The notes beneath the pieces are model-generated. The model saw nothing but the letters and a program-made list of their open reading frames with translations. It searched no databases and was not told where the DNA came from. A DNA stretch of 64,000 nt from Trichodelitschia bisporula (Eukaryota), in assembly GCA_010356995.1 (NCBI GenBank), contig ML996689.1, positions 576,691 to 640,690 on the forward strand, given 5' to 3'. A program made the position numbers and the translations under genes. How positions within the stretch are numbered: the first letter of the stretch is position 1; every line of letters begins with the position of its first letter. Below, piece by piece: positions 30,271-45,639 of this stretch.

Positions 30271-33200
30271 TCAATACCCATCCAACCCCCACCCAAGCGC
30301 CCCCGGCGTCAAATCATCAAACGTAATCCCCTCCCGTGGCTCTTTCTTCACCACCCTCCCCTCCTTCGCGCGAAACGGCCCCACCTCCGCATCATACCGC
30401 TCCGCATACCCCGAAATTCCCGCCCACTCCTCGCCCCCCAGCAACAAATCCAAATTCATATTCGGCCCGCCATTTCCCTGCACTTGGCCCCCATTCGCAT
30501 GCTCTTGGAAACCCCGTGCCGGACCCCCGTTCACTTGCGGCCCATTAGATGATCCGCCCTGCATGGCGTACATGGGCATCGGCCCGAGGAGCTGCACGTC
30601 GCCGTCCTCGTCCAGCCCCATCGCGGACCCGTGACGCTCTTCTTCGCCGCCGCGCGCCCGCCCGCCGTCGCGGAACATGAATGCCGAGGACGGGGGGACG
30701 AATCCGCCTTGCACGTCGGCGGCCTGGCCCGTCCTTCCCTGGAACCCCCGCAACGCTTCCAAGCTCGCGGGGAACGGGAAGGTAGGGTCATCGCCTAGGG
30801 ACTTGAGGATGGCGTCGTAGGTGTGGGCCGGGGGCGCGGATTGGTTGGGGTAAGCGAAGGGATCGGCTGAGGGGAACATTATTGCGGAGAGGTCGGCGAG
30901 GGGGAAGGAAGGTTCCGGGATGGCGGGCGAGGCGGGGAAGGAGTTGGAGTCGTGGGTTGAGTGGGTTAGGGCGGGGGTTGCGGAGCTCATGGTTGGGGTT
31001 GGCGTGGTGTGCATGGAAAGGTGTAGTGGATGCGCGACGTCGAAGAAGGATTGCGTTACTTGTGCTTGTGGGAAGGAGTACTGATTCAGGTCGACGGGGG
31101 CGTTGTACGCCTTGCCGAATTCGCCCATGGTTGGCGCGGCTTCGGGGAAGGTGCTGGACCGGCGGGGAGGCGGAGGTCCCGATCCCGATGCCGATGCCGA
31201 ACCTTCAAGACCAGTAACAGTCCGTCCAAACTCCGGTTGGCTAAAGGTTACGGCTTCTTGCCGGCGCTTGCGGCCCGAGATCGAGTTCTGCCGCGTCCGG
31301 TGCAACCGTTCCGGGAGTTGCTTAAACAACGACTGGGACTGGTCAGCTAACAATATCGCCAGCTGTCCGAGCACTTACACTCAGTGTTGCGGTACACCGA
31401 TCTGCCGCCATGCTGCGCTTTGCGAGCGCCTCTAGCGTCTCCTTACCCTCCTTAGCCACTTGTAGGACACTCTGACTCGCCTCGTTATCCGGATTTTCCA
31501 GGGTGTAAAACACCAACGACAGAATAGCGAAAAAGGTAGTGTACATGGTAAACCAATAGGCTCCAATTAACAGACCGCGCTTCTTCATCTCCACGGCAAT
31601 ATGCACGATGTTGCGGGACACGCTCACACAGGCGGCGGCGCAAGCGTACGAGCGCTTGTCGACGACTCGCGATTTGCATGTTTGCGAGACATAATGCAGG
31701 AACGGACGATAGAGCATCATCTGCGCGTGGGCGTACGACATGCGCAGGAGGTGTTGCACCCTGGCAGAAGTCAGTCCCGTCTGGATGGAAAATTCGACGC
31801 CACACGGATTCTGCCGTTAGGCTGAAACGGACAACGTCGGTTTGCATCGCAGTATCGCAACATCTCCACATGGAAGACACTGGCGTTCAACGCACCATGA
31901 ACTCTGGGGCAGCGAAAAAAACTTACCTGACTATTATCAGTGGAGCCTCACCGCCGGGCTTCAGGCCCATGGGCAGCCTGTCCTGCCATTCCTGCAGGTC
32001 CTTCTCTATCTCAAGAATCTGCGAGTAGCTGACGCTGTACGATTTGAACTTGCCCGGCGCACCGACCGGCGAGCCTTTAGTCGGATAGACGTAGCGTACG
32101 ATCTTAGCCAGGATGCGCACCAGATCGGTATGTGCGTTTGACGCTGCAAGCACGGAGACGCGGCCCGGTGGCATGTCGTAGATGCCGTCGGCTGTGATGA
32201 ACTCATCATCCACCGGCGCTGGATAGTCCTGATCGATGTCGTCGTCGCTCAACGAATGCGGCAAACCAAGCAGCGCACCTACGTACGTGTCCATTTTGCG
32301 GATAACCCAGAAGACACGCTTCCGCGTCTCGGCTTCAATGGGGTTGAAGGGGTCAGGGAATGAGCGATGCAGACCCATGCGCAGCGCGGACCGGAGTGCA
32401 ACGCCAATATAGGCGTAGCATGTCGATAGCTTGGCTGACGATTGTAGGAAGAGGATCATGAATAGGATGGCCTGTAATTGTCGCAGGTCGCGAACATCAG
32501 CAATGTCCATCAGTTGGCGAGACAGCTTGAAGTATTTAAATCTGGAAGAGTAAGCTTTCGTTTTAGTGCAACAAGATGGCAATGACGTACCCTTCGTTGA
32601 TTGCTATCTCGTATCCATTCTTCATCAGCTCACTCTCCTCATCCTTTGCAAACAGGGTTCCCAGCGCCATGCACGCATAGGCCAGCGGCAAAAAGACGTT
32701 ATCATCGTTCGTATACGACTCTGGCGGGATATCGTACAGCCGGTCCAGTGACGCTTTGAAGGTGGGATAATGCACTATACGCAGCAACGCAGCAGCGTCA
32801 TCAACGGCAATCTCGCAGAGTAGGCTTGCCTTCTCCCGAGGTGGCAGATCGGACCCTGGATGTGCTGAATCCCAAGGCGAGTCGGTGGTCGAGCGTGGAG
32901 AATCGAACACCTGAGACAGCGGACGCGACTTGACAAACGGCGTCGCATGGCCTTCGACGATGAAATCCGCTCCCAGCTGCTCTTTCATCCGGCGCACAAA
33001 CGACAGGCCCGATGACTGCCCATGGTACTCCAGGTTGCCCTGCTCGTCCAAATCCAGTTGTCCCGTCGACTTGACCATCGACTCGAGATGGCTCTCCGCA
33101 GCAGTGTCGTTGCTCGGTACTCCGTTCGACGCATGCGCGACGGGATTCGCGGGGAAGGCCACGGGCGGCGGAGCCTGCACCTGCTGCAAGCTGGCATGCG

Positions 33201-36840: not shown

Positions 36841-39800
36841 CTACAACGTCCACCCCCAATACATCGCGCCCTCAAGCCTCTGCACCGCACCATCCAGGCA
36901 CGGCAGCTCCTGCACCAGCGTCCCGTAAAACTCCTCCACAATCTCGACCACTCCCTTCCTTACACCCTCCTCATCCCCCAGAGTCACAGGCACCTCCCTC
37001 CTTCCCCCACCACGAAGGACAAAATACCGCCCCCCCTCGCACCGCCACCGCTCCTTAACCTCCATCTCCAGTTCCCGCCAACAATAAGCGCCGACGGCAT
37101 CAACATGCAGCTCTTCACTTCCCAGCGCCGGGCCAACCGCGTCATCTTGTCCCAGCACTATCTGCGCCGCAAAGACCGCGAAGCGCTTGAAGTACCCGAG
37201 AGCGCGTAGTGCGCGCTTGCCGTCCTCGTTCAGGCCGACCCGGCGCATGATGTAGTCGAGCGGATACATCGCATTCCGCACGACGACGAGTACGAGGCGC
37301 AGAATGTGTAGCACATGCACCTGGTCAAATAAGCCGGCGTGTATGACAAGTAGCTCGGTAGCGGCCTCGAGGCTGGCAAGCGTTGCGGCGAGGAGGCGCT
37401 GCGCGACAGCGACCGAAGCTGGCAACATGACCATGAAGGAGAAGCGCAGGTTGTCCATCTGGTGCGCCATGGCGTGCAGCACGGGTGTGGCGAGAATCCA
37501 GCCCGTGGCCGATTTGAGTGCTAGACCGATGTAGGGTGGGAAGACGGTTTGGAGGAGGACGGAGCGCAGGGTTGGTTTGTCTGCGTCGCCAGTCTCCATG
37601 GTCTGGCCGATGGCATCATTGAACTGGACTACCAGGTTGTCTTGTTGGGAATCCAGGGCGGCGCGCTCGGAAAGGTTTTGGATGAAGGCGGCGAGTTGCT
37701 TGACGGCGCGGGGCTCGCTGAGCTTTGTGCTGTATGACTTGAGCCGGCCGACGACGTAGGCTGGGTCGTGTACTGGGAGCGGGAAGGCGGCGCTGTCGGT
37801 GAAGAATAGGTCGACGGGTGTGATATCTGAGGTGTACTGCTGGATATAGGAGACCAAGCTCTGTGCGAAGGTGGTATATGCGCTCTTGGTGGGGTCGGCA
37901 TTCTGCAGGCCCAAGTAGTTACGCTTCACGGCCGTCATCAAGCTTTTGAGGTGCGATGTGTACATGCGCCGAAGATCGGGAAGCGCACTGGGTTCAGTCG
38001 CGCTGACCAGGTCATAGTGCTCCCGCATGTTCTCCAGAACACTGGATATCAGTGAAAGACGTCGCTCGCGGAGTTCGGCGGCAGATATACCATATCTTGT
38101 CGATTTGGCAGTCTTTGCAAACGGCAGGTTTCGAAGCAAGCAATTCTCGCCATCTGCATTCAGCAGAACCGATGTGAGGTGATGCTGGAACTTGAGCATG
38201 GAGTCTCGCTCAACCAGCGACACAAGCCAGGCTGAGATAAACTGTGCATGATTGCTCGTAAGCGCACTGCTGTCATACTTGACAAGGGCCGACAGGAAGT
38301 ACGGTCCGTACTTGCGCTTCTGCGGAGTGTCCCCTAGCTGGGACCACGAGCTGGAGCCATAGCTGTCGAGGAAGCTGTTCCACTCCTTTTCGCCCTGCTT
38401 GACCATAAGACAAGCCAGCCTTGCCCATGTATCGACCACAGATGTGAGAAGGCTGTCTTCTGGTGGTAACTCCGCGCCAAAGCAGTTCGAGAGCAGCTGG
38501 GAAAGGGGCTCCAAGATGAACTGCAGCAAGCTCTGAGATGGAGCAGCCTTTGGGACCTCTTCAAGGTCAAACTCGGGCCATTCGCCATAATCTTGACTCT
38601 CCTCGTTGCTGACGAGCGCGGCAGCCTTTTGACGGCTCGCCTCGAGGCCGCCGAGGAGTGCTTCAAACACCAGAAGGAGCTCCTGCATCAGGCCACATGA
38701 CTTGGCCGTCTTGACATCGAATACCGCAGCCACTTGACTGATACCAGATTTCCGAACAAGCTCCACAACCGGGTTAAGTTCCTTGGATGCACCGATTGCC
38801 GCTTTCATTCCAGACACAGCATCTATCAGCGTTCCTAGGACTTGAGCTTGATTCTGGCCGATGGTGATAGTTAGGACATCAAGCGAGAAGGCCTCCCGCG
38901 ATTCTTCAATCGCTGCTTCGTATTGGCTCTCAGCTTCGGTGCGGGCCAGGCGATATTGGTATATTGTCTGTTGAACAATGTCGCTAAACCATTCCGCAAA
39001 GGGCTCGAGAGCGCTGACAGGCTCATCGGTGGAGAGCTGGAAGCGGACCAAGATGGTCCAGGCTCTCACATTAAGGCGACAGGCTTCGCGATGAGATGTC
39101 GCATGGTCAACGAGATTTCGGATCAGCTGCAATCGCGGTCGAAATGCGGGCGGAGATGCCCAGTACAGTGTGCAAAGGAGGTCATGGTGGTTGCGAAGGG
39201 CGTCTAGATCGTGCTGCTTTAGCTCCTTGTCCTTGGGATACGTCCGGCCATGGTTCGGAATGCACCGCCAAACCAAACTCCGGACAGCCTTGTCGGGACA
39301 CAGCCCTTGCATGCCCTTCAGCCCAAGTGCGATAATCTTCAGGAAAATGTGGAAAGACTTGTCTTCCGACACGACATTCAGTTGCGGGTCCTGCTCAAGA
39401 TTCTCGAGGAACCGGGGGGAGCCGGACAGGTTCTCGTTGCGCAACGGGGCCAGGCCATTTCTGGCAAAGAAATCGAAGATCGTCCCAATGATTGAGTCGC
39501 ATTTTCTCCAACCCCAAGCTTGGATGAGGTGGTGGCATCGCGCTAAAGTCGCTCGAATGTAGTTGTTGATGGTGGAACCAGGCTGGGTCGATGTTGCCGA
39601 ATACAGTGTAAGCACCCGAGACACAAGGGCCTTGACAACATCCCAGTTGTCCCACGACTGCGAGAAGCGCTTTCCAACCTCAAGCAAGCCGCCGTCATCC
39701 ATTTCCAGGAATGGGAGCACGGTGAAGATATCGTACCACACCTGTTCAAATCCTGCAACATGATGCAAGTGACTGACAGAAGGCTGAGTCTCTTCATTAA

Positions 39801-42800
39801 ACCCCTTCCAGAAGGTTTGAGGTGCTTGAGTGCCTTTTTGCAGTGCATGCCACAGAACCACGACTGCCTCGACTGTAGCTTGCTCCTCTCGTATACCCGC
39901 TTCTCGTACGGAATGCCGTCGATTGTCATCAAGAAAAGTCCGCAAAGATTTCAGGCTGTTGCGGATGAGAAAGCGCTGGACACTGTTCGTAAAGACGGAA
40001 AGAAACTGTTCAAGGCGTGTGCGGATCCCGGAATCTGCCGTCTCATGCTGTGAGATGCCCGTAAGTTGCGCCAGGAGGGACACAAGCAGCGAGCAAAGAT
40101 GCAACACCGGGCCCAGTAAGATAAGGTCGCTACCGTGGCAAGAATTCAGCAGTTGGAGGGCGGCGACGCTCATGGGCTCCAAGCTTCCGAGAAACGTAGC
40201 CACACAGGAAGATCGATCGATCGGATCCGAGAAACTGAGCCAGCTGGAATTGAGCTTGATGACCTTGCGAAGGAGTAAGGTTGCTGCTCTGATTGCCTGA
40301 GTTGGCCGAGTAAAGTCCGTAAAGCCCCCTACTGGTGGCCCCAGCGATTCCAGATGCGCAGCGGAATTGTGGAATACATGCTGAACGGTCGTCGCCATTT
40401 CGTCGTTCCAGCTTGTCCAAGTACATGTAAGATCGCTGAGGGCCGCTACATGCGAGCCAGCGTCTAGGTCGAGATCCCGAGCCATGGTCAAGCAGTTGCG
40501 GTATTCGCCACTACCGACAAATGTTGAATCGTGGAAGTACGTCCCAAGAGGGAGTGGAAGTACATCAAAATCGATCGAATATAGCATTCCGAAGGATCCC
40601 AACCCTGCAAGAACCTCTGGGCCATCATCTATCATGTCGATGTCGATGACATCTGCCGGAGGAGGGTTGAATTCGATTGGCTGCCGATATTCCTGGGTTT
40701 CGACATCCACCCTCCTCGCAGGCCGTTTCCGCGGCTTTGGCTTAGCGACACGCTTCGGAGCCGGCGCATTCTGGGCTTCATTTCCCTCAAGAGTGGGTCC
40801 AGGATGCTGCTCGAACTCAACTTCTTGCTGTAGGTATCTAGCCAGCTGAGGGTTGCGAAATTCGTCCGAGTGAAGCCTGTACTCGCGTTCCACCTGACGG
40901 AGACCCTGCGCAAAGGCTGACGTGCCATGCCTGGAGGCAGTTCCTGTCTCCACAACCTCGAGCTGAGCATCTCGCCAGGCGGGTTGCACGCCTCGAAACA
41001 GGTTTCGAACGCGAGGCTTTGGTTGTCGGGCCTTTGGCGGCGGCATATTTCTTGCTTCCGCAGCAGGGGTGGACACTACATTCAGCAGAGTTTGGCGCTT
41101 TCTTTGCAGTTGGGACTTTGAACTCGACTTCGTAGTCACGGAAGCATTGACTGGTTGCGGGAGCAACTGCTGCTGCTTTGATGATGCTTGTGTCCGTGGT
41201 GGGTGTACATCACTTCTCGGAGTTTTCCGTACACGTTTCGGTATGGTACCTTCCCGCCATCTTTGCAAAGTGGCATTCGCATCTTGAGTGTCTTGTCGGG
41301 TTTGCAATCTGATGTGCTTGTTCACAGGGCGGTGGCGACCTTCGTCAGGCATGCGCCGTGCCTGTCGAACTGCAATTTTTAGGAAAGCTGGCATCGACCG
41401 TGGACTGGGCGGATCTGCCTCAACGGCATCTAGTATCCCCAACTTCGGAGGCTTCTTCCTCCGTGCAACACTGCGCGATGCCCCAGCACCAGTATCACGC
41501 GGTGCGCCAATACCGGACCCTGTGCTCCGATAGTTGGTGGCGCTAGGCTGCCCTTTTGGCTTAGAGAAGACATCGGTAATCCTGGGCTGCCTCTTCTTTG
41601 GCTTCCTCTGAGCTGGATTTCGATGACTCTGCCCCATTCGGTCGACCCTATTGTCCTCCATGGCCTCGCTACCGCTGGACTCGCCGGCACGTGCGCGACG
41701 GAAGCCTCGGGAGGAGACCGATTGGATCTCCACGGAGTGCCGAGACTTGGGCCGAGAGACCGTAGGTGTGAATGCAGTGTCTGTCGGAGGTTCTGAGTCA
41801 TCGGACATGTCAATAGAGAGTGGATCAAAGCGGGGATTTCGCTGTGGAGTCAGCCGGGATTGAACTCTGCGCGCGACGCCGGTCTGATGTGCTTCACGGT
41901 CATCAGGCTTTGACGGCCGTGCCGGTTTGGGATCCGGGTTTTGCCCTTGTGCCTTCAGGTCAAGTTTCAACCAAGAGGCGGGTAGTACCCCCTTGATTCG
42001 TCGGCGGACAAGTTGTACTTCCCCTGGATCCTCACTTTCAGGCTCTGATGCCGAACTTGAGTCCGAAATCACGACTGGGGAGGGCTTCGAATGCCTCAGG
42101 CTAGATGAAGTGTTCAAGACACGTCGAGCAGTGGGTCCGAGAGGGGTGTCGTTCAGTGAGAGGCCGTCGGACGGCGGAAAGGCGGGAGTTTGAGGCTCAT
42201 CATCTGGAAGGTTGGGGCCAATCTCAACCGCTGTCATCCTCGGGGGGGCGGGTAGCGTGTCCCCTTGTGGAAGACTTCTCAGTTCCGAGTCCCCAATCGT
42301 TGGCATTTGCAAACTCCCAGGACGTCGATGGCCTCTCCGAGCCTGGAAGCCCATTCCATGGCCGGGGCTTGAAATGCGTGACACCGCGTGTGGACGTGGA
42401 GGGCTGGGAGGCACATCGAACATGTCCACGTCTTCGTCGACTGGAACACGATGCGTAGGACCGTCCACCCCTAGTCGACGGCCAACGTTGCCACTTCGGT
42501 AAACGTGCTTCGTTTTGCGTCGCTTATTGCCCAGAGCTACCGCCTCCCCGGAAGAGCGGAATAACTCATTGATGTCTGGAAGGTCGTCCGTACCAGACCT
42601 GTAGCCAGGCGGTGAAGATGGCGGCTGTGAAGGTGGAGGCCGTGGGATCCGTACAGGCCGTACCGCAGAATTGGGCTGAGCGGAAGAGAAGCTCTTCGTA
42701 CGCCGATGCCCCCGATTAGTCGCAGGAGCCGGGCGCTTCTCTTGAGATTCTTCCGCTTCCCCGCTTGAAGCCTCACTGACTTGTGTCTCCTCCTGCGCCT

Positions 42801-43539
42801 GTTCAATGCGGACCGGTTTCACTCCCCGAGCTTTGAGAGTTTGCTTGTATTTCTCCATCTCTAGCAGGTAAGGATGGAGCTGGATTGGGTTGCGTTTCCG
42901 CAAGCTCCGTTCCGGCCGTCCTTGTAATTCCCATGCCGCTTGTAAATCAGACTCCGGCACCACCGGCCTCTCAGTGCTTGGTGCTGGTCGAGAATGTTTT
43001 TGATGTTGTGGCCGCACCATAGATGATGTAAAAGGCAGAGTAGGGAGACCATCATCTGACTTCTCGTTTTGTGATGCGGGTCTTGACGGCCAGTCGGGCA
43101 AGGATGTGAGAAGGGACGACGCGCGGGATTCATTCCCACCCCCTTGAGCGATCCGATCGCGGTGCGGGGAACTCGTGAACTTGGTCACCGAAGAGATGCG
43201 GAACGGGGTCGATTCGAGCTGCAGCTCGTCCAACTCTATGGCATTTCTGCCCAGCTGCTCCGCAATTTCTTCATCGCGAATTCCACCGTCCTGAGAGCCT
43301 TCCTCGGGTCGAGCCCGTACGATTTGCGGTGCATGATATGGTTGAGCAGTCTTTGCGGCGTCGGCGGATTGTGTGGCCTCGGCGGCGTCTGCGTCTTCGT
43401 GATCATGCTCAATGAGATCGGCGTCATTGCGTGGCGTTGGGTCGTCGTGTGGCGTGCTTTGGGTTTCGATATCTTCGTCTTCGAGTATGCCTTCGTCTTC
43501 CGAGTCGGGAACGTACCCCAGCTCCCTCCATCGCTTCAT
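36841..43539 (-). CDS. MMS22: DNA repair protein Mms22/Mus7
   Basis: Likely start MKRWRELGYVPDSEDE (ATG 43539); about 2230-aa intronless ORF; RSLRKRNPIQLHPYLLE, IKGVLPASWLKLD, LRNHHDLLCTLYWASP, SHREAC motifs recalled from fungal Mus7/Mms22. Confidence 0.85.
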   Translation of the reverse strand: MKRWRELGYVPDSEDEGILEDEDIETQSTPHDDPTPRNDADLIEHDHEDADAAEATQSADAAKTAQPYHAPQIVRARPEEGSQDGGIRDEEIAEQLGRNAIELDELQLESTPFRISSVTKFTSSPHRDRIAQGGGNESRASSLLTSLPDWPSRPASQNEKSDDGLPTLPFTSSMVRPQHQKHSRPAPSTERPVVPESDLQAAWELQGRPERSLRKRNPIQLHPYLLEMEKYKQTLKARGVKPVRIEQAQEETQVSEASSGEAEESQEKRPAPATNRGHRRTKSFSSAQPNSAVRPVRIPRPPPSQPPSSPPGYRSGTDDLPDINELFRSSGEAVALGNKRRKTKHVYRSGNVGRRLGVDGPTHRVPVDEDVDMFDVPPSPPRPHAVSRISSPGHGMGFQARRGHRRPGSLQMPTIGDSELRSLPQGDTLPAPPRMTAVEIGPNLPDDEPQTPAFPPSDGLSLNDTPLGPTARRVLNTSSSLRHSKPSPVVISDSSSASEPESEDPGEVQLVRRRIKGVLPASWLKLDLKAQGQNPDPKPARPSKPDDREAHQTGVARRVQSRLTPQRNPRFDPLSIDMSDDSEPPTDTAFTPTVSRPKSRHSVEIQSVSSRGFRRARAGESSGSEAMEDNRVDRMGQSHRNPAQRKPKKRQPRITDVFSKPKGQPSATNYRSTGSGIGAPRDTGAGASRSVARRKKPPKLGILDAVEADPPSPRSMPAFLKIAVRQARRMPDEGRHRPVNKHIRLQTRQDTQDANATLQRWREGTIPKRVRKTPRSDVHPPRTQASSKQQQLLPQPVNASVTTKSSSKSQLQRKRQTLLNVVSTPAAEARNMPPPKARQPKPRVRNLFRGVQPAWRDAQLEVVETGTASRHGTSAFAQGLRQVEREYRLHSDEFRNPQLARYLQQEVEFEQHPGPTLEGNEAQNAPAPKRVAKPKPRKRPARRVDVETQEYRQPIEFNPPPADVIDIDMIDDGPEVLAGLGSFGMLYSIDFDVLPLPLGTYFHDSTFVGSGEYRNCLTMARDLDLDAGSHVAALSDLTCTWTSWNDEMATTVQHVFHNSAAHLESLGPPVGGFTDFTRPTQAIRAATLLLRKVIKLNSSWLSFSDPIDRSSCVATFLGSLEPMSVAALQLLNSCHGSDLILLGPVLHLCSLLVSLLAQLTGISQHETADSGIRTRLEQFLSVFTNSVQRFLIRNSLKSLRTFLDDNRRHSVREAGIREEQATVEAVVVLWHALQKGTQAPQTFWKGFNEETQPSVSHLHHVAGFEQVWYDIFTVLPFLEMDDGGLLEVGKRFSQSWDNWDVVKALVSRVLTLYSATSTQPGSTINNYIRATLARCHHLIQAWGWRKCDSIIGTIFDFFARNGLAPLRNENLSGSPRFLENLEQDPQLNVVSEDKSFHIFLKIIALGLKGMQGLCPDKAVRSLVWRCIPNHGRTYPKDKELKQHDLDALRNHHDLLCTLYWASPPAFRPRLQLIRNLVDHATSHREACRLNVRAWTILVRFQLSTDEPVSALEPFAEWFSDIVQQTIYQYRLARTEAESQYEAAIEESREAFSLDVLTITIGQNQAQVLGTLIDAVSGMKAAIGASKELNPVVELVRKSGISQVAAVFDVKTAKSCGLMQELLLVFEALLGGLEASRQKAAALVSNEESQDYGEWPEFDLEEVPKAAPSQSLLQFILEPLSQLLSNCFGAELPPEDSLLTSVVDTWARLACLMVKQGEKEWNSFLDSYGSSSWSQLGDTPQKRKYGPYFLSALVKYDSSALTSNHAQFISAWLVSLVERDSMLKFQHHLTSVLLNADGENCLLRNLPFAKTAKSTRYGISAAELRERRLSLISSVLENMREHYDLVSATEPSALPDLRRMYTSHLKSLMTAVKRNYLGLQNADPTKSAYTTFAQSLVSYIQQYTSDITPVDLFFTDSAAFPLPVHDPAYVVGRLKSYSTKLSEPRAVKQLAAFIQNLSERAALDSQQDNLVVQFNDAIGQTMETGDADKPTLRSVLLQTVFPPYIGLALKSATGWILATPVLHAMAHQMDNLRFSFMVMLPASVAVAQRLLAATLASLEAATELLVIHAGLFDQVHVLHILRLVLVVVRNAMYPLDYIMRRVGLNEDGKRALRALGYFKRFAVFAAQIVLGQDDAVGPALGSEELHVDAVGAYCWRELEMEVKERWRCEGGRYFVLRGGGRREVPVTLGDEEGVRKGVVEIVEEFYGTLVQELPCLDGAVQRLEGAMYWGWTL

Positions 43540-43756
43540 TGGAACGTGTGTGCATTCCGGAAAGTGAACATGCGGAAAGCGTGGGGATGTTGGATGAGTG
43601 CACTCAAGCCTAAGACGCGTTGTGATGTCGACGCGCAGGCCTCGGGCCGTTCCGCGCCATTGCCTGATCACATGATGTGCGCAAACATTTGATTACCGCA
43701 TTTCACCCCAACTGTCTTTGCATTCACTGTTGGAGGTGCCATCGGCTTGATAATCC

Positions 43757-44095
43757 ATGGGTAGGAGAGGGTTGGTTCCTTTGGCAATTGCGACTGTCTT
43801 CGGGATTGCCAATGGTGAGTACAGACCGCTACTCCTGACAAGCAAACTTCTCACCTCTCCAGGCGTCGCCACTTTTGGCCCGGCATTCCAAGAGCAAGCC
43901 AAAGAGAAGCAGCAACTAGCAGAGTACTTCTCCACCTTACCCGGACATGGTCGCTGGAGATGCTGATGTGCTTATCCTAGGCAAGCTGCTAAGCCTCCTC
44001 AAGGAAGCTCACCTGTCAGCGAGGATGGCATGCCTCTTACTCCGCTACAACCTGCTCCGAGCAATACCAAATCAAACGCTTCCGACTCAAATTGA
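43757..44095 (+). CDS. 77-aa single-TM microprotein, PIGBOS1-like (3 exons)
   Basis: Exons 43757-43814, 43863-43923, 43981-44095; introns GTGAGT..CTGAC..CAG and GTACTT..CTGAT..TAG; spliced product MGRRGLVPLAIATVFGIANGVATFGPAFQEQAKEKQQLAEQAAKPPQGSS...ASDSN*. Confidence 0.75.
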
Positions 44096-44599
44096 CGGAC
44101 TGAGCACAGTCTAGTTCTAGTTCTAGTCTTCGGCCGCAGCACCGGTCCCTAAGCCTAAGGAAAGCAAATCACCGTTGCATAGCTTCGGACGCCAATCATG
44201 TACAACCCAAACTCAGAGTCTTTGAACTTCGGATTTCGCGTACTGTGCTGCCTTTTGGTTCGAGCAAGCGACTGTGTTCTAGTGCCCGCCAATGTAGCTG
44301 CGTCAAAATGTAGCCGCCCAACGAAACGGCGGCTCTGTATGAGAAGGATGTTTCAAGGCCTAACGATTGGACATCCGTTGTCTTCTCAGCAAAGTGATCG
44401 GAACCTTGCATCTGAAGTCTTGGCGGAGAGACCAATCCATTATATTTAGGACAATGACGCAGGCAGCTCTTTATCCGCCATTGTTCGCCACGCCCTTTCA
44501 TCTCACCATGTGCTGAGGGATACATATCTCAATCGAAAAGTGAACGCCCGGGTGTAGAGATCCATCTACTTTCTCTTTCAATTCGACCCTGTTGGCATC

Positions 44600-45639
44600 A
44601 TGTCAAATTCAACCATTTGCAGCCTGGTACCTAAAGATGCCAGCTCCGACGCAGGCGTCGCTGGTGCAGGCGTACGATTCTCGATGCCTTGTAAAGATCT
44701 AACGGACGGCTAATTATCGCAGGTTCTCCTCTCCTTCATCATAACCGCGGCGCTCTCCGTGCTCCTCAGCGCCACGATCATCCTCTCTGAACTGCGACGT
44801 AACTCCGAAGCCAAAATCTACCGCAAAATCCTCCTCTCCTTCAGCGACCAGCAGATCCTGACAGGAATCGGCATCCAAACCGTCGGCCTCGTCAAAATGG
44901 ACTCAATCGTGCCGTACCACTTCTTCATCATTTGGATGCTCTCCATGCTCTCGACTGCCACCCACGGAGCCGCCCTCCTTGCGCTCGTAAATGACTTCAG
45001 GCGCGACTGGGTCCTCCGCTGGCTGCGCCAGTTCCTCATGTTCATCAACCTGGTGCTCTCATGCACTTATGGCGTCCTGGTTGCGATGAACGTGACGAAG
45101 GACCTCCAGCCCACGCTCCCCATCTCCTGCGTCTGGAAGATCCCGGCCCGCAAAGCCCCCTCATATCTCGGCATTTCTATCGTTGGGACCATTGCCGTCA
45201 TGGCCGGCAGCTGCATCGTCTTCGCGCTCGGCGTTTGGTTCTTGCACAGCAGACGTGAGCGCTGGAATAAGATCATTCAGGTCGCGGGTTTGGCTGTGTT
45301 AACTGCCATTGGGGTGGGCGCGGCGATCAGGGTCATACTTCTATCGCAAGCGTTTGGGTCACCATCTGTATCCTTGAGGGACACCAATGAGAAGGACTGG
45401 AGTTTTGGGCAGCTGCTTCCTTTGCTCCTGCTGCTCTTGCCGCTCATGTCGGTCATCGAGCTAATTCGCGGTAAGTTCTATGCTCGAGTGGGAATAATGT
45501 GCTAATAAGACTAGGCGAAATGAGAGTACCTGCTCCAGTCATGGAAGGCGAATACATCGGAGAGGAAAAGAACCAGGCTCGGCTGTCGTTTGAGCCGAAT
45601 CCTTTCTGGGGTTCGCGGTCAAATCTTGTTGCCAAATGA
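44600..45639 (+). CDS. Multi-pass membrane protein of unknown function
   Basis: Exons 44600-44671, 44723-45470, 45515-45639; motifs DAGVAGAGVLLSF, FSDQQILTGIGI, WSFGQLLPLLLLLLP, typical of a widespread uncharacterised ascomycete TM family; about 7 hydrophobic segments. Confidence 0.8.

Follow-up and report, generated by a model that had tools for sequence, protein, structure and literature searches.

In the contig segment analysed here (64,000 nucleotides of Trichodelitschia bisporula ML996689.1, hereafter the window), a small gene on the + strand at 43757-44095 stands head-to-head with MMS22. Reading of the sequence, followed by splicing at the coordinates given below, yields three exons, two GT..AG introns and a 234-nt spliced coding sequence that specifies a 77-aa product of about 7.9 kDa. 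The features of the locus are as follows.

36844..43539, - strand: MMS22 (Mus7/MMS22 family), the head-to-head neighbour; Pfam PF09462, 508.7 bits
43540..43756, no strand: divergent intergenic region between MMS22 and the small gene, 217 bp; ACGCGT at 43615-43620, ACGCG at 43631-43635
43757, + strand: start codon ATG of the small gene; an in-frame TAA lies directly upstream at 43751-43753
43757..43814, + strand: exon 1, 58 nt (19 codons plus 1 base); carries the start codon and encodes the basic N-terminus along with the first half of the membrane helix
43815..43862, + strand: intron 1, 48 nt, phase 1, GTGAGT..CTGAC..CAG; keeps the reading frame and contains no stop
43863..43923, + strand: exon 2, 61 nt; encodes the membrane helix from its middle to its end (F-G-P), then the conserved polar juxtamembrane segment
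43924..43980, + strand: intron 2, 57 nt, phase 2, GTACTT..CTGAT..TAG
43981..44095, + strand: exon 3, Pro/Ser-rich tail, predicted to be disordered; TGA stop
44096..44671, + strand: 3' region of the small gene; RNA contigs continue unbroken into the first exon of the next gene

This model reproduces exactly the 77-aa ORF, joined by two canonical introns, that a preliminary description of the locus had put forward; its figure of 217 bp to the MMS22 start also stands, with the first ATG of MMS22 at 43539 (- strand) and that of the small gene at 43757. The same description had stated that the six-frame track displays the gene merely as a misread fragment, and we identify that fragment as a stop-to-stop frame of 70 aa (43754-43966) that reads through intron 1 and ends within intron 2; the six-frame listing gives this single read-through frame because intron 1 is both in frame and free of stops. 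When all 2,032 six-frame pieces of the window were scored with a profile built from 15 annotated homologues (alignment A3), the sole match was 43754-43963 (+), at E 6.7e-13; the next best piece had an E value of 4.7. The three-exon frame at 43757-44095 is more than a chance reading. Genes so small, and split by two introns, are easily overlooked.

Transcript evidence comes from RNA-like contigs of two public sequencing runs (X1 and X2), both from one sample of one study and labelled as RNA by a guess; we treat them as behaving like RNA because, when compared with 43000-45600, they skip three GT..AG intervals. One of these is intron 2, which is skipped exactly (43923 to 43981) in one contig from each run, so that splicing of intron 2 is confirmed by RNA-like contigs from this one sample. 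The contigs begin at 43890 (X1) or 43902 (X2) and cover the remainder of exon 2 to 43923 plus exon 3, and the hole in contig cover at 43611-43889 is of a kind that proves nothing. Of the two proposed introns, then, RNA bears out the second; the contigs do not extend to exon 1 or intron 1. On the 3' side, one contig per run joins 43890/43902-43923, 43981-44671, 44723-45469 and 45514 to beyond 45600, and so connects exons 2 and 3 to the gene that follows on this strand; the two genes may have UTRs that overlap, may be linked by read-through or may share one transcript. The introns of that next gene, 44672-44722 and 45470-45513, are skipped in the same contigs. No Pfam family reaches its cutoff on the gene's 249-aa exon, where DoxX_3 comes to 17.9 bits with 25 required.

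The reality of intron 1 is supported by comparison with homologues. The annotated spliced homologues run contiguously over the intron 1 junction, and on the A3 profile the spliced window peptide scores 64.8 bits in one stretch, while the read-through form is split into two stretches and reaches 46.6 bits. The position of this intron (phase 1, in the Gly codon that follows an invariant Asn) recurs in six to seven metagenomic fungal loci (L001-L007). Its length ranges overall from 48 to 77 nt (48 in the window, 49-77 in the metagenomic loci), and in three of the six sequences measured (the window, L002, L003, L004, L006 and L007) that length is not a multiple of three; for those three, L004, L006 and L007, exon 2 can consequently be read only after splicing. 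A second intron comes after an exon 2 of 61 nt in L001-L004, as in the window, and of 58 nt in L005-L007.

The only Pfam family found for the small-gene protein is PF23670, "PIGBOS1-like". With window 43757-43966 as the query, intron 1 being read through, the match reaches 41.4 bits at E 1.6e-10, where the gathering cutoff is 27, and it falls into two stretches, exon 1 on profile positions 1-23 and exon 2 on positions 22-40 of 54; exon 2 by itself scores 20.4 bits. Spliced homologues match the same profile in one stretch at 51-61.3 bits, covering positions 1-44 to 1-53 of 54, with the closest annotated spliced homologue at 60.5 bits over positions 1-53; a divergent metagenomic protein (P0069) reaches 27.5 bits. 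The preliminary description had inferred a fungal member of the PIGBOS1 family, and these scores for the window protein and its homologues sustain that assignment as regards the Pfam family named after PIGBOS1. Membership of PF23670 is thus supported at the level of sequence, with the qualification that the match spans profile positions 1-40 only and that a second, Trp-rich C-terminal motif is missing from the window protein. Homology with the human protein is proposed by way of the Pfam model; the model length of 54 equals that of human PIGBOS1, and the fungal proteins align from position 1.

A word-index protein search with the read-through protein as query gave no match. Searches of the same type that started from alignments were productive: A1 returned 28 matches, 25 of which carry a precomputed PF23670 assignment, and A3 returned 65, with 52 so assigned. 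In a library of 1.84 billion representatives there were four matches at E <= 0.001, and three of them are true relatives, all being intron read-through ORFs from metagenome or Logan assemblies. We rejected the top match of that search (P0002, 482 aa) as a false relative: it is a low-complexity, Cys/Trp-rich tandem-repeat protein that matched only the intron-derived residues 21-46. The word-index and representative searches together returned only fungal or unnamed sequences, none of them marked as the window's own protein. A set of metagenomic and Logan entries (P0003-P0009, P0058-P0060, P0064 and P0067) are likewise intron read-through ORFs and yet carry a PF23670 match; such ORFs consist of the exon 1 peptide, then 13-24 junk residues, then the exon 2 peptide, with a stop within intron 2. 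Prokaryote-style gene callers make intron read-through 'proteins' of such genes, and these products are now in public collections. Among solved structures no relative was found, the best PDB match being a designed ankyrin at E 2.1. A homologue queried against the ESM Atlas had as its nearest clusters two of PF23670, one of 112 members, mainly from Ascomycota, and one of 59, mainly from Chordata, at scores of 0.83-0.84, which we take as leads only, since scores below 0.9 are often reached by chance.

Every one of the 33 NCBI-named relatives is a Pezizomycotina protein labelled 'hypothetical' or 'uncharacterized', none of them belongs to the window's own species, and the four species that were checked belong to Leotiomycetes, Lecanoromycetes, Candelariomycetes and Xylonomycetes. 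The gene was described beforehand as hidden, which is true in part only: Pfam already has Ascomycota members, and the 33 named fungal proteins belong to the family as well. The accompanying remark was that an ER-mitochondria contact function of this kind is not known to be characterised in filamentous fungi; our literature search found no paper on fungal members or on their localisation or function. Fungi are mentioned in none of the 75 publications found to contain PIGBOS, nor does 'PF23670' or 'PIGBOS1-like' occur in any of them; of the PIGBOS papers that also name yeast, those inspected describe no yeast or fungal homologue, and a preprint on the yeast subphylum names PIGBOS merely as an analogy. 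With fungal members already in Pfam and in public annotations, the window gene joins a known family. What is added here are the conserved intron positions, the conserved pairing with MMS22, and a juxtamembrane block that may match the partner-binding site of the human protein.

Compared with L002, the window is only 58% identical at 113 coding bases, and the intron gives an equal figure; of the 37 codons compared, 30 differ, and 17 of these 30 differ synonymously. By this codon comparison, the small gene is shown to be under purifying selection. In 38 full-length rows there are nine invariant positions (A3 numbering: M1, R5, G6, P9, G17, N20, G21, F25 and P27), and the window protein retains all nine. 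The juxtamembrane segment is also well kept: for window residues 29-35, the commonest residue is present in 28-31 of the 38 rows at five of the seven positions.

The architecture is that of a 77-aa microprotein with one N-terminal membrane helix. The N-terminus is short and basic, with two arginines and a charge of +2 ahead of the helix. The helix itself (about residues 6-28) is moderately hydrophobic, with a Kyte-Doolittle 19-residue maximum of 1.83 at residues 6-24; two invariant prolines bracket it, an invariant G-x-x-N-G lies at its centre, and it ends in F-(G/Q)-P. Beyond it come the conserved polar juxtamembrane segment (about residues 29-40) and the Pro/Ser-rich tail. An AlphaFold2 model of homologue P0015, computed with A3, contains one helix at residues 7-45 and disorder past residue 47, at a mean pLDDT of 59 that rises to 71-85 over residues 1-30.

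The head-to-head arrangement with MMS22 recurs in four of the five metagenomic loci with enough flanking sequence (L002, L004, L006 and L007), in which the MMS22 start codon is separated from the small-gene ATG by 266, 273, 262 and 277 bp, respectively. In the fifth, L003, no MMS22 lies within the 1.7 kb of upstream flank; L001 and L005 have flanks too short to judge. Taken across these loci, the pairing is an old and conserved one. The intergenic regions of three lineages contain no common word of 7 bases or longer. Each of the MMS22/small-gene intergenic regions does hold two to five ACGCG/CGCGT cores, versus about 0.4-0.5 expected from shuffles, an enrichment that is strong in two loci, L006 and L007, and modest elsewhere. 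The positions are:

ACGCG/CGCGT cores: window, 43615-43635; L002, 9842 and 9869; L004, 9835 and 9862; L006, 9758-9843; L007, 2428-2512

ACGCGT corresponds to the MluI cell-cycle box known from G1/S genes, and such an element would be fitting for MMS22. RNA contigs of MMS22 extend to 43598-43610, and the window's ACGCG cores are situated just upstream of these contig ends. Elsewhere in the window, a frame at 31926-32603 (- strand) matches Fungal_trans, a fungal-specific transcription factor domain, at 83.2 bits, and seven other long frames in the 28-55 kb interval gave no Pfam family at E <= 0.001.

The founder of the family, human PIGBOS1 (PIGB opposite strand 1), is a 54-aa microprotein of the mitochondrial outer membrane, with a membrane helix at residues 7-29 (Chu et al. 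2019, PMC6814811). It is a signal-anchored protein whose C-terminus was placed in the cytosol by protease protection and split-GFP, and its binding to CLCC1 depends on residues 30-36 (PMC6814811). That founding report also says that PIGBOS has no homologs. A 2026 preprint links the C-terminal region to calcium signalling via CLCC1 (10.64898/2026.01.08.697870). Because exon 2 aligns to profile positions 22-40 of 54, the conserved fungal block probably includes the human CLCC1-binding segment at residues 30-36, provided that profile numbering is equivalent to human numbering, as we infer it to be.

Our preferred reading, which we hold with somewhat more confidence than doubt, is that the locus contains an intact gene under selection for a 7.9-kDa PIGBOS1-like (PF23670) protein, and that this protein may act as a signal-anchored mitochondrial adaptor, the latter part being carried over from the human founder. 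By analogy with that founder, the N-terminal helix would serve as a signal anchor and insert into one of the mitochondrial membranes; the outer membrane is the likeliest, and the C-terminus would then be in the cytosol. There the protein would work as a small adaptor that engages a larger partner in the membrane through the conserved face of its helix and the juxtamembrane segment, a core function for which the variable tail would not be needed. Any ER-mitochondria or UPR role of the fungal protein would be taken over solely from the human work (PMC6814811).

The main rival accepts the same gene and family and places the protein instead in the inner mitochondrial membrane, as a small accessory or assembly factor of complexes III and IV rather than an outer-membrane partner of the ER; we consider this unlikely. 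FLAG-tagged human PIGBOS1 co-purified HIGD2A (the Rcf1 orthologue) along with subunits of complexes III and IV (PMC8664129), a result that fits the inner membrane no worse than the outer. Furthermore, the part that is conserved among the fungi and in the Pfam profile is a helix with a small and polar face, as would be expected for an intramembrane partner. The Atlas neighbours by language-model features also include two mitochondrial assembly-factor families, DUF4516 (0.79) and PET117 (0.76), although these are leads only, and fall below the score of 0.9 under which chance resemblance is frequent. On the other hand, the protease-protection and split-GFP assignments of the human protein, with its cytosolic C-terminus, speak against an inner-membrane site. 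At stake for the family as a whole is a choice between outer-membrane crosstalk with the ER and assembly of the respiratory chain; a conserved fungal member would open the core function to deletion, tagging and the mapping of interactions in fungi that are easily manipulated.

A second rival would have the fungal family resemble animal PIGBOS1 through convergence upon a short Gly-rich helix, such that Pfam lumps together two unrelated families. The match does extend over only about 40 residues, of which the membrane helix accounts for more than half. Nevertheless, we regard convergence as quite improbable: scores of 41-61 bits are far above the curated cutoff of 27, the polar segment of exon 2 earns its 20.4 bits on positions 22-40 independently, the model is as long as the human protein and is entered by the fungal alignment at its first position, and in some fungal members F-Q-P replaces F-G-P.

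It is more improbable still that the frame lacks expression as a separate gene and belongs instead to a long spliced leader at the 5' end of the membrane-protein gene downstream, or to a two-gene transcript, with the small ORF being at most an upstream ORF. The contigs that join exons 2 and 3 to the next gene, neither of which reaches exon 1, speak for such a leader; however, contigs that span two genes do not prove a single transcript, nor does a hole in cover prove anything, the peptide has been kept under purifying selection, and in L002, L004 and L006 the downstream gene is non-syntenic whereas the small gene and MMS22 are syntenic. A chance ORF or noncoding leader we rejected outright on the combined evidence of selection and profile.

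There is also a bolder extension of our preferred reading, that of an outer-membrane adaptor. CLCC1 is the human homologue of yeast Brl1/Brr6 (PMC13061601), and because of this homology a fungal test of an ancient PIGBOS1-CLCC1 axis is conceivable. In that extension, the PIGBOS1-CLCC1 pairing would predate the split between fungi and animals, Brl1/Brr6 in the ER and nuclear envelope would be the docking site of the fungal juxtamembrane segment, and expression of the small gene would come under cell-cycle (ACGCG-box) control via the tight divergent promoter that it has in common with MMS22, a replication-stress gene. We offer this as a long shot; if it were true, an ancient pairing of PIGBOS1 with Brl1/Brr6 would link mitochondria to the machinery of membrane fusion and lipid homeostasis.

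It is instructive to compare the window protein with known systems. Chu et al. class PIGBOS with the N-terminal signal-anchored proteins of the outer membrane (PMC6814811), and the window protein is similar to the Tom20-type members of this class in having a moderately hydrophobic N-terminal helix with flanking positive charge; it differs from them in that a receptor domain is absent and the protein has just a short conserved helix followed by a disordered tail. Its place in the class is a putative one. Among Pezizomycotina proteins of PF23670 (such as Xylona heveae L228DRAFT_250295, which is P0028, and Pleopsidium flavum M1830_003465, which is P0015), the N-terminal 40-45 residues are alike and all invariant positions are kept. 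Most of these proteins are about 117 aa long and have a second Trp-rich motif near residue 90, whereas the window protein is without it. That motif, S-W-W-P...L-W, occupies A3 columns of approximately 88-100 and is also absent from the short homologues P0015, P0050 and P0051.

A further comparison is that with human PIGBOS1. The two genes differ in structure and in setting: the window gene has three exons and is paired with MMS22, whereas the human coding sequence lies in one exon, and its partner is PIGB. The proteins differ in length, 77 aa in the window, and the Pro/Ser-rich tail of the window protein is unrelated to profile positions 41-54. On the other hand, human PIGBOS1 is the founder of PF23670, a family that the window protein matches above cutoff, and both are microproteins in which a short basic N-terminus leads into one N-terminal helix, with a polar juxtamembrane segment after it.
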